Positions 31,544-36,431 of a stretch of DNA of 64,000 bases are shown here, in pieces. Numbering within the stretch: the stretch's first letter is position 1; each line of letters begins with the position of its first letter. Origin of the DNA: an uncultured bacterium (GTDB lineage: Bacteria; Chlamydiota; Chlamydiia; Chlamydiales; SM23-39); NCBI GenBank assembly GCA_963716985.1, contig OY970323.1, forward strand, positions 497,942 to 561,941. The letters run 5' to 3'. The notes beneath the pieces were generated by a model, which worked only from the letters and a program-made list of their open reading frames with translations, was not told the DNA's origin and ran no database searches. A program made the translations under genes and the position numbers.

Positions 31544-33229
31544 ATGGTTAGCCATTTGCAAAATCCCTTTATTGTTCAGGGGGACATGACGGTCTTGGCA
31601 GAGGTGCATTCTCCTTTGTATGAAAATGCCAGGGATCAATTGGCTCGTTTTGCTGAGCTGGTCAAGTCACCGGAGCACATGCATACCTATCGCATGACTC
31701 CACTTTCCATTTGGAATGCCGCCGCCGCCGGTTATTCATGTCAGGAAATGATGGATACATTACAGACTTTTTCTAAATATGAGGTTCCCCGACATGTTTT
31801 TCAAGAAATGCAGGAATTGGCCTCCCGCTTTGGCAAATTGAAGATTTATAAGGCCGAAAAAGAGGGATCCCTTCTCTTAGAAGCACAAAACGAATTTTTG
31901 GCAGAAGAATTGGTCCATCATAAAGAGGTAGGTCCTTATTTATCGAATCGAATCGATCAAACAAGCTTTTGTATTCCGATAGCCCTTAGAGGAAAACTCA
32001 AAATTGAATTGATCCGTATGGGATGGCCTGCTGAAGATTTGGCAGGATATATAGACGGGGAAAAACTCTCTCTCTCCCTTAGAAAAATTTCCCTTTCGGG
32101 AAGACCATTTGATCTTCGGGATTATCAAAAGAAAGCAGCCCAAGTTTTTTATGATCAGGGAAGTGTTAAGGGAGGGGCCGGAGTGATCGTTCTCCCCTGC
32201 GGTGCCGGTAAAACGATTGTTGGCATTTCAGTCTTATCCCAAGTTGGATCATCGGTTCTTATTTTAACGACAAGCGTAAGCGCTGTCAGACAATGGAAGT
32301 CGGAGATTTTAGATAAAACCTCTATCGATGAGAGTCTTGTGGGAGAGTATTCGGGACATGTTAAAGAATTAAAACCCATTACGATTTCGACCTATCAGAT
32401 ATTAACCCATCGAAAAAGTGAAGCCGACCCCTTTCTTCATTTTCGCCTTTTCTCCGAAAGAGAATGGGGGCTCATTATTTACGATGAGGTCCATGTCCTT
32501 CCTGCTCCTGTCTTTCAAATCACAGCCGAAATCCAATCAAAAAGAAGATTGGGATTGACGGCAACTTTAGTGAGGGAGGACGGAAAAGAGACCGAAGTTT
32601 TTGCTTTAATTGGACCTAAAAAGTTTGACATTCCCTGGAAAGTGCTGGAAAAGGAGAATTGGATCGCAAAAGCACTCTGTTTGGAGGTTAGAATCCCTCT
32701 TCCCGAGTCGATCAAAATGAAATATGCACTTGCAGATCGTCGAGATAAATTTCGCATTGCGTCTGAAAATCCCGACAAATTTCGCATGGTTAAAAAAATT
32801 TTAAAAAAACATCAGGGCTTGCCTACCCTCATTATCGGACAGTATATTGAACAATTAGAAAAATTGGCGAAAGAATTAGACCTTCCTCTCATTGATGGTA
32901 AAACCCCACAAAAAAAACGGGATCTTCTTTTTCAAAAATTTAAAGAGGGAAAAATAACAAAATTAGTTGCGTCAAAAATTGCCAATTTTGCTTTGGATCT
33001 ACCCGATGCACAACTAGCGATTCAAATCTCAGGAACATATGGCTCAAGGCAAGAAGAGGCCCAAAGATTAGGGAGAATTTTGCGGCCGAAAAGCGGGCAA
33101 AATCGGGCCTATTTTTATACTTTGGTTTCTCAAGACACAAACGAAATGGATTTTTCTCGCAATAGACAGCTTTTTTTAACGGAACAAGGATATGCTTATG
33201 AAATTTGCTATTCTAAAGATTTTTCATAA
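31544..33229 (+). CDS. XPB/Rad25/Ssl2-type SF2 DNA helicase
   Basis: Walker A LPCGAGKT, DEVH (IIYDEVHVLPA), LGLTATLVREDGKE including the XPB-specific RED motif, and motif VI QRLGRILRP. The N-terminal damage-recognition-type domain is FIVQGDMTVLAEVHSPLYENARDQLARFAELV... Confidence 0.85.
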   Translation: MVSHLQNPFIVQGDMTVLAEVHSPLYENARDQLARFAELVKSPEHMHTYRMTPLSIWNAAAAGYSCQEMMDTLQTFSKYEVPRHVFQEMQELASRFGKLKIYKAEKEGSLLLEAQNEFLAEELVHHKEVGPYLSNRIDQTSFCIPIALRGKLKIELIRMGWPAEDLAGYIDGEKLSLSLRKISLSGRPFDLRDYQKKAAQVFYDQGSVKGGAGVIVLPCGAGKTIVGISVLSQVGSSVLILTTSVSAVRQWKSEILDKTSIDESLVGEYSGHVKELKPITISTYQILTHRKSEADPFLHFRLFSEREWGLIIYDEVHVLPAPVFQITAEIQSKRRLGLTATLVREDGKETEVFALIGPKKFDIPWKVLEKENWIAKALCLEVRIPLPESIKMKYALADRRDKFRIASENPDKFRMVKKILKKHQGLPTLIIGQYIEQLEKLAKELDLPLIDGKTPQKKRDLLFQKFKEGKITKLVASKIANFALDLPDAQLAIQISGTYGSRQEEAQRLGRILRPKSGQNRAYFYTLVSQDTNEMDFSRNRQLFLTEQGYAYEICYSKDFS

Positions 33230-33391
33230 AGGAGTGAGCTCGTCAACAAATAACCTCTCCCCAGGAACGAATATATGCACCTTGGAATGCCGCCTCAATT
33301 CCGGGCTCTTATGGTTACATTTATTTAAACAAAAAACAATAGGAGCAGCGCTTTCCTCCCACCCCTAAAGAAGAGAGTTTCGCGCTGTCAA

Positions 33392-34807: not shown

Positions 34808-36431
34808 TGATTTTAACATAAGACAGGATCTGCTTTCTTTTTATTATTATGTCAAAGATCGCTATGTCAAACGTTCTTATCGAGAAAATAGGATTCCTCA
34901 AGTCGATTTGAAACGACTTTCTACAATTCTGCAGGTTCCTAAAGTATTAAAAAACTTTGAGGAAGAGACGGGGTGTTGGTCTGAATTCATTTGCGATTTG
35001 GCCTACCATTTGAAAATCGTAAGCTATATAAGACATAAAGAGTCTTCTTGGTATGTCGACAAAATTACCGATAATTTTATTCGCTTGCAACCTATCGCGT
35101 GGAAAAATTATTTACAAAATCTCTCGGGTGACAAGGAAAAGATGATTTTGGATGTGTTGATGAAAAGTTCTGTGAATGAATTTTATCACAAATCCTCCCT
35201 CGGTATTTCTCCTCGCTTTCCTACAAGAGGCCGCGACTACTGTGGCTCAAATGACATGGATCTTTTTTCGATTCGAGTTCAGTTATTAAAACTCCTTTCT
35301 TCCTATGAAGAGAACAAAGAAATCCCCTTTTCGGATTTTGTCGAAAGGGTCAAAAGGGAATATCCCCACTTGATTTTGAAAAAAGGAAAACACAAACAAA
35401 AGTATGAATACTTTTATGAATATGTGACTTCCAAAGATCTCCCCTATCCAAAGGAGAAGGAGATTCAAGAAACCGACAGCGATGCTTTCGAGCGTGTTGA
35501 AGGAAGATATTTGGCATTTTTTCTGGAAGATATTCCCGCCCTCATGCAATTTGTCCGCCTAAAATATGATCAAAAGGTTGTCGAAGATAGGCTCTCTCCC
35601 TCTCCCATTCATTATATCAAGTCATTCACGGTTTTGCCGAAATTGAAAGGGGTTTTAACAAATCAATCGGAGTTCCATCGTGTTTCTGTGACGATTACCG
35701 CCGATTTTAAAATCTTTCTTGATGCCCCCCTTTTTCCCGATCGAGAGAGAGAATTACTTGAGCCCTATTGCAAAGTTCATTCCTATGACAAACATGTTTT
35801 GACATTAGAGCTGAATCGTAAAAAAAGCGTGGAGAGTTTAGCGCGGGAAACAACGATCGAAACACCTATTGATGTGATCAAGAAATTGACGAAAAACATT
35901 CCACAAAATGTTATGATTGAGATGCAAGAGTGGTGCAATCAAGCAGACCAACTGATTGTTTATGAAGATTTTGGCCTTTTAGAGCTTCGGGATTTTCCCG
36001 AAATTTACAAAGAGAAGCTTTTAGAACAGATGAAGGACAATATTTCTGAGCAAATTGTTCCCGGTCTTTTTCTTGTTCGTGCTCCAAAGAATTCCTATGA
36101 GTACATGAAGTTAAAAGAATGGGCACCTGAAAAAATTGAACATTCGATGAAACGACTTTTGCTTGAGTGGACTCCCTTTCGATTTATTCGAGAGACAAAG
36201 GTTTTAGAAAAAGTGCGTTTAGCAGAAGTTCCTTTTTTTGCCATTCAATCGCCACACGTAGGTATTTTGAAGAAATTAGACAAGTTTTTGCAAGAAGAGG
36301 GAGTGAAGCCCACCTTTTTTTGCAAGGAGACAAACTCCGTTATTTTTCCCGAAACGGGTCGAGTGAAAATACGCTCTTTTATAAAAAAGATTTCGACCGA
36401 ATTTGAGTGCGTTGGGGAGCTTTCAACATAG
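34791..36431 (+). CDS. Uncharacterised XPB-associated protein 2 (546 aa) with an XPB-N-terminal-like module
   Basis: It overlaps the previous gene by 17 nt. VIKKLTKNIPQNVMIEMQEWCNQADQLIVYEDFGLLEL parallels XPB MMDTLQTFSKYEVPRHVFQEMQELASRFGKLKIYKAEKEGSLLLEA. Confidence 0.7.
   Translation: MDQSSDDFNIRQDLLSFYYYVKDRYVKRSYRENRIPQVDLKRLSTILQVPKVLKNFEEETGCWSEFICDLAYHLKIVSYIRHKESSWYVDKITDNFIRLQPIAWKNYLQNLSGDKEKMILDVLMKSSVNEFYHKSSLGISPRFPTRGRDYCGSNDMDLFSIRVQLLKLLSSYEENKEIPFSDFVERVKREYPHLILKKGKHKQKYEYFYEYVTSKDLPYPKEKEIQETDSDAFERVEGRYLAFFLEDIPALMQFVRLKYDQKVVEDRLSPSPIHYIKSFTVLPKLKGVLTNQSEFHRVSVTITADFKIFLDAPLFPDRERELLEPYCKVHSYDKHVLTLELNRKKSVESLARETTIETPIDVIKKLTKNIPQNVMIEMQEWCNQADQLIVYEDFGLLELRDFPEIYKEKLLEQMKDNISEQIVPGLFLVRAPKNSYEYMKLKEWAPEKIEHSMKRLLLEWTPFRFIRETKVLEKVRLAEVPFFAIQSPHVGILKKLDKFLQEEGVKPTFFCKETNSVIFPETGRVKIRSFIKKISTEFECVGELST

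Follow-up and report, generated by a model that had tools for sequence, protein, structure and literature searches.

An XPB-type helicase encoded with two p52-like proteins in an uncultured chlamydial bacterium: a candidate prokaryotic counterpart of the TFIIH XPB-p52 submodule

Gene content of the XPB locus

The DNA analysed here (the window, 64,000 nt, positions 497,942 to 561,941 of contig OY970323.1 in assembly GCA_963716985.1) belongs to an uncultured bacterium of the Chlamydiales (SM23-39) and encodes an XPB/Rad25-type superfamily 2 (SF2) helicase followed by two large proteins, termed P1 and P2. These two partners resemble p52 (Tfb2 in yeast), the subunit that anchors and regulates XPB in the eukaryotic transcription factor IIH (TFIIH). 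The open reading frames (ORFs) of this module, with their domains and putative signals, some of them read from AlphaFold2 (AF2) models, are as follows:

31416-31444, + strand: candidate sigma-70-like promoter upstream of XPB, TTAGCA-17-TAAAAT (weak; 9/12 matches in a consensus scan alone)
31544-33229, + strand: XPB ORF, 561 aa; XPB/Rad25-type SF2 helicase with matches to NF045503, TIGR00603 and Pfam ResIII and ERCC3_RAD25_C
31568-31954, + strand: N-terminal domain of XPB (Helicase_C_3, aa 9-137; PF13625, E 1e-34), equivalent to the XPB domain engaged by the p52 clutch in TFIIH (PMC6422496)
33392-34807, + strand: P1 ORF, 471 aa; p52-like, with a SAP-like N-terminal domain
33440-33541, + strand: SAP-like DNA-binding motif of P1 (~aa 17-50), from family-level Pfam SAP matches
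34349-34750, + strand: C-terminal clutch-like domain of P1 (aa 320-453), with the secondary-structure order of the P2 clutch and a weak alignment to XPB
34774-34779, + strand: AAGGAG ribosome-binding site near the 3' end of the P1 frame, 11 nt upstream of the P2 ATG, read from the sequence
34791-36431, + strand: P2 ORF, 546 aa; p52-like
35481-35510, + strand: DxFERVEGRY motif of P2 (aa 231-240), invariant or near-invariant alignment columns
35685-36113, + strand: clutch domain of P2 (aa 299-441), with homology to the N-terminal domain of XPB and to the p52 MD2/clutch
36234-36392, + strand: extra C-terminal beta-alpha-beta-beta-alpha domain of P2 (aa 482-534) in the AF2 model, preceded by a low-confidence linker
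36414-36448, + strand: terminator-like hairpin and T-run across the P2 stop codon from a pattern scan, probably the end of the operon

XPB, P1 and P2 most likely form a single operon. As an earlier note on this DNA, made from the letters alone, had described, all three ORFs are read from one strand, and the frames of P1 and P2 overlap by 17 nt, the P2 start preceding the P1 stop; together with the ribosome-binding site inside P1, this overlap is consistent with coupled translation of the two partners. Upstream of XPB, positions 31314-31478 hold a 54-aa ORF of low complexity.

The helicase gene had been called unmistakable XPB, and family-level comparisons leave this identification unchanged. 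The protein scores 841.3 bits against the NCBIfam model NF045503 (DNA repair helicase XPB; cut-off 610, aa 8-554) and 354 bits against TIGR00603, and its Pfam matches comprise Helicase_C_3 (PF13625) at the N-terminus, ResIII and ERCC3_RAD25_C (PF16203, E 1.5e-48). All of the motifs previously named are present in the translation, namely GAGKT and DEVH (motifs I and II), the XPB-specific RED in TLVREDGKE, and QRLGRILRP (motif VI). In a sequence comparison with solved structures, the window XPB scored 291 bits against human XPB and 282 bits against yeast Ssl2; the archaeal XPBs in the PDB, including the Bax1-binding XPBII of S. tokodaii, scored 164 and 127 bits. Judged by its sequence, the window protein is a canonical bacterial XPB of the eukaryote-like type that carries the Helicase_C_3 N-terminal domain.

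Neither P1 nor P2 matched any family in Pfam, NCBIfam, PADLOC or PHROGs, so that no catalytic signature is detectable in either protein, in agreement with the previous reading that both lack signs of a nuclease, ATPase or other enzyme. Furthermore, XPB retains 50-61% identity across phyla among the loci fetched in this study, whereas P1 and P2 fall to 20-30% (tblastn).

Predicted folds of P1 and P2

The AF2 models reached a pLDDT of 90.9 and a pTM of 0.84 for P1, and a pLDDT of 87.0 and a pTM of 0.73 for P2. Foldseek searches of the PDB with these models placed TFIIH p52/Tfb2 chains at the head of both lists, where they make up the best 19 matches for P1 (best E 6e-7) and the best 18 for P2 (best E 1.8e-8). 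The matched chains are of human, yeast and Chaetomium origin, with E-values from 1e-8 to ~4e-3 and probabilities of 0.85-1.0. XPB chains rank next for both partners, with alignments of ~165-175 columns for the leading ones and ~150-190 over all XPB matches listed, and reach probabilities of 0.9-0.96 (E 0.15-0.37) in the case of P1. Winged-helix proteins unrelated to p52 appear in both lists only at E ~1. The predicted models support an overall fold of P1 and P2 that is shared with solved p52/Tfb2. A p52/Tfb2-like fold had been among the specific suggestions of the earlier note for both partners. Its description of the partners as paralleling the XPB N-terminal domain in segments was too narrow; the segments were recovered, and both proteins are p52-like over most of their length.

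Clutch, SAP-like and C-terminal domains

In TFIIH, the clutch of p52 and the N-terminal domain of XPB have the same fold and form a pseudo-symmetric dimer that recruits XPB (PMC6422496). Profile alignment with hhalign paired P2 308-428 with the N-terminal domain of XPB (XPB 19-144) at a probability of 96.6% and an E-value of 6e-10, and this alignment is identical to the P2/XPB parallel pointed out beforehand from the letters. The parallel proposed at the same time between P1 and XPB was recovered in weaker form: P1 396-460 aligns to XPB 94-164 with P 8e-5 when the C-terminal sub-alignment is used, and the whole P1 profile gives P 0.003. In the AF2 models, the order of strands and helices in the P1 C-terminus is that of the P2 clutch, and the two partner profiles align with each other at equivalent positions with P 0.007, a value that is not significant alone. 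P1 and P2 of the window gave no PF13625 match in the Pfam scan; 21 of the 44 P2 homologues match this family weakly (best E 6e-7).

A Pfam SAP domain was identified at the N-terminus of 15 of 82 P1 family members (best E 3e-6), the window P1 itself being without a Pfam match, and the P1 family profile aligns to the SAP domain of SIZ1 with E 0.11. Except for this SAP-like hint for P1, profile searches of the PDB with both families returned chance-level matches. P2 contains two beta-alpha-beta-beta-alpha modules in its AF2 secondary structure, at aa 394-441 and aa 482-534. The second of these is the extra C-terminal domain, whose weak alignment to the C-terminal domain (CTD) of p52, the part that dimerizes with p8/Tfb5, is not significant (P 0.19). 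In the helicase-associated family described below, this extra C-terminal region has its equivalent in the second clutch-like copy.

Distribution of the partner families and synteny with XPB

A word-indexed protein search yielded 47 homologues of P2, and a scan of one genome per species located P2 relatives at 167 genomic loci. P1 appeared orphan-like in the word-indexed search, yet an exhaustive HMMER search returned 103 cluster representatives of ~460 aa. For the analysis of gene neighbourhoods, 80 of the 167 P2 loci were fetched (individual loci are denoted L with a number) and compared by tblastn and ORF clustering. All three genes were found at 37 of the 49 loci with room on either side of P2, with the remainder containing P1 and P2 only (5 loci), P2 and XPB only (2) or P2 alone (5), and P1 adjoins P2 in 48 of the 58 loci with room upstream. 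The recurrent block is mostly ordered P1-P2-XPB, and the order seen in the window, XPB-P1-P2, also occurs in L064 and L071.

The hosts of these loci include Planctomycetota, Chloroflexota, Desulfobacterota, Gamma- and Betaproteobacteria, Spirochaetota and Bipolaricaulota, one genome of the Planctomycetes-Verrucomicrobia-Chlamydiae (PVC) group and archaea of the Methanosarcinales/ANME type. The three-gene synteny is conserved across phyla and across domains. Furthermore, the genes overlap start to stop on a contig of Promethearchaeota (Asgard), and in the PVC genome the frames likewise overlap or directly adjoin at their start and stop codons. Conservation within the P2 family is highest in the DxFERVEGRY motif, which is invariant or nearly so in 44 bacterial and archaeal homologues. 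The earlier note had considered both partners to be probably dedicated to XPB and had called for a neighbourhood analysis; the synteny at 37 of 49 loci, the fold matches to p52/Tfb2 and then to XPB, and the profile comparisons all support this.

Several further features were observed around the module. In a near-identical strain (Logan assembly; L082 5490-7129), P2 is broken into ORFs of 336 and 200 aa, which could reflect either a frameshift/pseudogene or an assembly error. SWIM zinc-finger proteins are encoded near the module in several loci (L087 11311-15514, L062 3108-4892, L043 and L066), and the Asgard contig encodes an SNF2 helicase with DUF3670 close to it.

A fused partner in other phyla and its relation to p52

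A tblastn search of a plasmid collection with the window XPB gave its best matches on replicons of at least 200 kb, in annotated XPB genes. A clutch-bearing partner gene is located nearby in all five opened neighbourhoods of NF045503-type XPB:

Deinococcus: 811-aa helicase-associated domain-containing protein near XPB
Paenibacillus: 657-aa helicase-associated protein, its gene overlapping XPB
Actinomyces: 847-aa helicase-associated protein near XPB
Tsukamurella: 725-aa helicase-associated protein, five genes from XPB
Acaryochloris: 622-aa hypothetical protein directly upstream of XPB

The helicase-associated genes that the earlier note had placed beside actinobacterial XPB are thus present in annotated records, and their products are homologous to P2 and have a P1-like N-terminus. 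In addition, a ~745-aa helicase-associated gene follows directly after XPB in nine Anaerolineae loci (L013, L017, L022, L035, L038, L042, L062, L067 and L069). Its product, in which a SAP-like N-terminus is combined with two clutch domains in tandem, is encoded behind a P1-P2-XPB block, and these genomes hold both the split and the fused form of the partner.

The profile of the helicase-associated (HA) family aligned to nearly all of P2 (HA 171-721 to P2 13-535; hhalign probability 99.1%, E 4.6e-19) and to the first 175 residues of P1 (85.8%, E 5e-6). As it aligns to the P1 N-terminus and the whole of P2, the HA family represents a Rosetta-stone fusion that links the two partners, and such a fusion of a P1-type N-terminus to P2 is a classical sign that would point to P1 and P2 acting together. 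The HA profile also aligns twice to the XPB N-terminal domain (E 3e-10 and 4e-7) and once to p52 residues 291-453 (94.6%, E 7e-8), the p52 alignment in this comparison consisting of vertebrate sequences and two yeast Tfb2 fragments. HA and p52 share the motifs (Q/E)(P/T)N(F/Y), (L/V)TRESV and LP..(V/I)...IR.W, which read WVVQPNFDIIAY, LTRESV and LPQNV..EIREWA in HA and IIVETNYRIYAY, VTRESV and LPPTITDQIRLWE in p52. Vertebrate p52 proteins carry PF13625 matches besides those to Tfb2 and Tfb2_C. The HA family therefore appears to tie P2 to p52 by sequence in addition to fold, a relation that is significant only through this family.

Two observations were made beside HA genes. A 99-aa ORF lies between XPB and the HA gene on a plasmid of Deinococcus sp. 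QL22 (L085 6744-7043) and was considered as a candidate for p8, the small TFIIH subunit; it matches the C-terminal beta-alpha-beta-beta-alpha module of P1 with E 5e-7 (six-sequence database), and its product may be a stand-alone small subunit for which a p8-like role is conceivable. It was rejected as evidence, however, and kept only as a lead: the Actinomyces 99-aa ORF at the same place encodes an unrelated hydrophobic protein, and the P1 C-terminal profile showed no alignment with either the p8 sequence used for comparison or the p52 CTD. On a Tsukamurella plasmid (L083 1-2705), the HA gene ends 1 nt before a convergent gene for a sigma-70 family factor, a single case.

Genomic context and origin of the module

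The G+C content at third codon positions (GC3) is 0.34-0.39 in XPB, P1 and P2, compared with 0.50-0.55 in the flanking genes (glycosyltransferase-like, DUF2608/HAD, radA, sodA and accD). On this compositional basis, the chlamydial genome appears to have gained the three genes by horizontal transfer. The earlier note had described an accessory module that also included the glycosyltransferase and the HAD gene. GC3 agrees with this for XPB, P1 and P2, which look foreign, whereas values of 0.50-0.53 suggest that the glycosyltransferase and the DUF2608/HAD gene are native, so that the acquired unit would comprise three genes and not five. The module is located, as had been stated, between two landmarks:

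29105-29440, + strand: rnc remnant, reduced to the C-terminal 112 aa of RNase III and containing an in-frame stop
37423-38781: radA, downstream of the module

The remnant is genuine, since a 99.8%-identical strain (L081) retains an intact rnc of 237 aa. Similarity to this strain begins exactly at window position 29105, which argues that a rearrangement truncated rnc here.

The left 27 kb of the window are an insertion-sequence-rich zone that borders the rnc break. IS66-family transposase genes are located at 3713-5251, 18497-20035 and 21529-23199, with the second of these assigned by equal ORF length alone, and IS701-family transposase genes at 5688-6728, 8476-9840, 13255-14619, 15936-17300 and 25522-26562, the last three assigned by an ORF length equal to that of a scanned copy. 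A group II intron match (Rfam RF00029, 51.8 bits) covers model positions 1-77 of 77 at 24350-24422 (+ strand), and three membrane-protein-like ORFs of unusually low G+C content (0.33-0.40) are found between this zone and the rnc remnant (26555-28981, - strand). The window also contains a match to TIGR03076, an NCBI-named chlamydial family, with E 2e-48 and 165 bits, below the curated cut-off of 509.5 bits; this match supports the chlamydial affiliation of the DNA.

A putative XPB-P1-P2 complex and its cellular role

We propose that XPB, P1 and P2 constitute, in minimal form, a prokaryotic equivalent of the XPB-p52 submodule in TFIIH, a reading to which we assign a probability of roughly 0.6. 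By analogy with TFIIH, we infer that the three proteins interact physically, and the same analogy guides which protein would bind which, how the ATPase would be regulated and how DNA would be tethered. XPB would act as an ATP-driven double-stranded DNA translocase. P2, whose predicted architecture is p52-like with a helical N-terminal region, a winged-helix middle part, the clutch and the extra C-terminal module, would most likely use its clutch, in the manner of p52, to dock on the N-terminal domain of XPB to which the clutch is homologous, and would thereby stabilize XPB and tune its ATPase. As a second p52-like paralogue, P1 would most likely join the complex via its clutch-like C-terminus, with the SAP-type motif serving as a tether to DNA. 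The winged-helix and SAP parts could then hold the DNA while XPB translocates against this fixed point, opening or remodelling the duplex. In the eukaryotic system, p52 together with p8 activates the ATPase of XPB and sets an upper limit to its DNA-stimulated rate (PMC7708078). The XPB of Mycobacterium tuberculosis alone unwinds DNA only at large molar excess (PMC3353954), which is consistent with a missing partner.

Several results weigh against the proposed correspondence with XPB-p52. Neither partner matches Pfam Tfb2 (PF03849) or Tfb2_C (PF18307) at E<=0.1, and these matches are likewise absent in 44 P2-family and 82 P1-family members. Direct profile comparison with a low-diversity vertebrate p52 alignment gave only P 0.0096 for P2 (p52 307-407), and P1 gave no signal against this small, low-diversity set. 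In the comparison with p52, both partners have low global TM-scores (0.2-0.3), which is to be expected of flexible chains with four domains, and the p52 match therefore rests on local 3Di+AA scoring and ranking. Furthermore, 12 of the 49 loci lack the complete set within the fetched DNA, and no nuclease, polymerase or repair gene recurs among 133 flanking proteins, so that a role in repair would be drawn from analogy and is not a finding.

The low TM-scores and missing Tfb2 matches would also fit a simpler view, in which P1 and P2 are generic winged-helix DNA-binders or regulators that merely lie beside XPB and resemble p52 through common winged-helix repeats; the lower-ranked fold matches of P1 to ArsR/HlyU, ESCRT-II and ScpB point the same way. 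We regard this view as very improbable. The E-values of ~1 for other winged-helix proteins are far behind those of the leading 18-19 p52 chains, the homology of the clutch to XPB and p52 is significant in sequence, the three-gene synteny with overlapping frames has been kept across bacterial phyla and archaea, and a fused version occurs beside XPB in other phyla.

In the census of 133 flanking proteins from the 80 loci, Helicase_C_3 is the sole repeated family, and no other family matches more than three proteins. Genome maintenance, either in lesion repair or at stalled transcription or replication, is favoured here by analogy over anti-phage defence. The earlier note had offered an anti-mobile-element or defence role as an option and had suggested a check for defence islands; this found little support, as defence genes occur only sporadically near the module (three SoFic, one PtuA and one JetD among the 133 neighbours). 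A defence system in which XPB is the translocating motor and P1 and P2 are sensors or adaptors would be in keeping with the patchy taxonomic distribution, the variable neighbourhoods and the foreign composition in this genome, with the toxin-antitoxin and reverse-transcriptase genes that flank the Asgard locus, and with a weak resemblance of XPB to PbeA and Dnd restriction helicases. However, no nuclease or other effector recurs in the 80 loci, many neighbours are housekeeping genes, and XPB, at 50-61% identity across phyla, is judged unusually conserved for a defence gene. P1 and P2 are without a match in PHROGs or in PADLOC (PADLOC-DB 2.0), and in the latter XPB itself obtained only partial PbeA-type helicase matches. 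We rank defence as unlikely because the defence genes are sporadic, no P2 relative was found on 72,556 plasmids, 50,697 phages or IMG/VR viral contigs, and the P1 fold has no match in a viral fold library.

A transcription-linked role ranks about equal to defence and is likewise doubtful. Here, P1 and P2 would link XPB to the transcription machinery for TFIIH-like promoter opening or the removal of stalled RNA polymerase. The partners resemble p52, whose XPB module opens eukaryotic promoters, the Tsukamurella HA gene abuts a sigma-70 factor gene, and transposon mutants in M. tuberculosis ercc3 show hypersusceptibility to rifampin, which inhibits RNA polymerase (PMC10534295). This phenotype may, however, reflect transcription-associated DNA damage, the neighbour census shows no recurrent gene for RNA polymerase or a sigma factor, and initiation in bacteria and archaea proceeds without a need for ATP-driven opening (archaea: PMC13153155).

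Novelty and significance

Papers and reviews from 2012-2026 describe the TFIIH subunits other than XPB and XPD as absent from bacteria and archaea, a 2026 perspective states that the remaining TFIIH subunits are absent from archaea, and a 2026 review calls the function of prokaryotic XPB elusive. A search of full-text literature found no description of prokaryotic p52-like proteins; most subscription journals lay outside this search, so prior notice is possible. Likewise, no publication was found on the function of helicase-associated proteins, Rv0862c or PF13625, or on XPB in defence. The link between XPB, p52 and the partners was discoverable because a Pfam domain is common to XPB, p52 and these proteins. 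What would be new here is the proposed XPB-p52 type of helicase-regulator pair in a split, two-paralogue prokaryotic form.

More tentatively, and at somewhat worse than even odds, we suggest that the central XPB-p52 pair of TFIIH did not arise in eukaryotes but derives from a widespread prokaryotic XPB/p52-like operon, or has a common ancestor with it, and that bacterial XPB, the mycobacterial enzyme included, works only with p52-like partners. If true, this dependence would explain both the weak activity of bacterial XPB alone and its elusive role, and with p52-like partners bacterial XPB would become part of a defined complex that can be reconstituted. Such a complex would provide a simple three-protein model for the regulation of XPB by p52, a step affected in human repair disorders. 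Since the module is present in an Asgard archaeon, it would moreover supply a datable element for tracing how the transcription and repair machinery of eukaryotes arose. Furthermore, the link reaches the uncharacterised helicase-associated genes beside XPB in Actinomycetota, a phylum covered here by the Actinomyces and Tsukamurella records; in M. tuberculosis, XPB (ercc3) affects rifampin tolerance (PMC10534295).

Comparison with known systems

The archaeal XPB-Bax1 pair resembles the present module in that an XPB helicase is encoded beside a dedicated partner. Bax1, however, is a nuclease and contacts XPB at its ThM/HD2 region (PMC13024598), whereas P1 and P2 are without a nuclease signature; they had no nuclease family match in Pfam or NCBIfam, and no XPB-Bax1 complex was described among the 50 fold matches listed for each partner. 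In contrast to the archaeal XPBs in the PDB, the window XPB scores far higher against human XPB and has a eukaryote-like N-terminal domain. A 2022 survey (BMC Biol, PMC9258230) reported fam18955, an archaeal 'TFIIH-like' family of hypothetical proteins with distant Rad25 homology in conserved clusters of Asgard archaea and Theionarchaea, without mention of p52. This family, likened here by its description only, could overlap with the clutch-bearing families identified in this study.

Close prokaryotic relatives are the PF13625-bearing HA proteins of 650-850 aa from Actinomycetota, Deinococcota, Bacillota and Anaerolineae, which are encoded beside the same XPB family. They consist of one polypeptide with two tandem clutch copies, whereas the corresponding parts are split over two genes here, and they carry PF13625, whereas the P1 and P2 genes go unrecognised by Pfam and NCBIfam.

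Compared with XPB-p52(-p8) of TFIIH (p52/GTF2H4/Tfb2; PDB 6NMI, 6TRS, 7O4I and 8EBS), the module is a prokaryotic operon whose products have ~10% identity to p52, and it encodes two paralogous partners in place of the single p52, with the SAP-like N-terminus of P1 and the extra C-terminal module of P2 as additional differences. Unlike in the TFIIH core, no p8, p34, p44, p62 or XPD genes are associated with it in the census of 133 neighbours, among whose 25 most frequent families neither the vWA domain (the p34/p44 fold) nor XPD/DinG was found. Both systems nevertheless have an XPB-type helicase with a Helicase_C_3 N-terminal domain, and in both this helicase is accompanied by a partner of p52-like multi-domain fold that carries no catalytic motif and contains a clutch homologous to the N-terminal domain of XPB.

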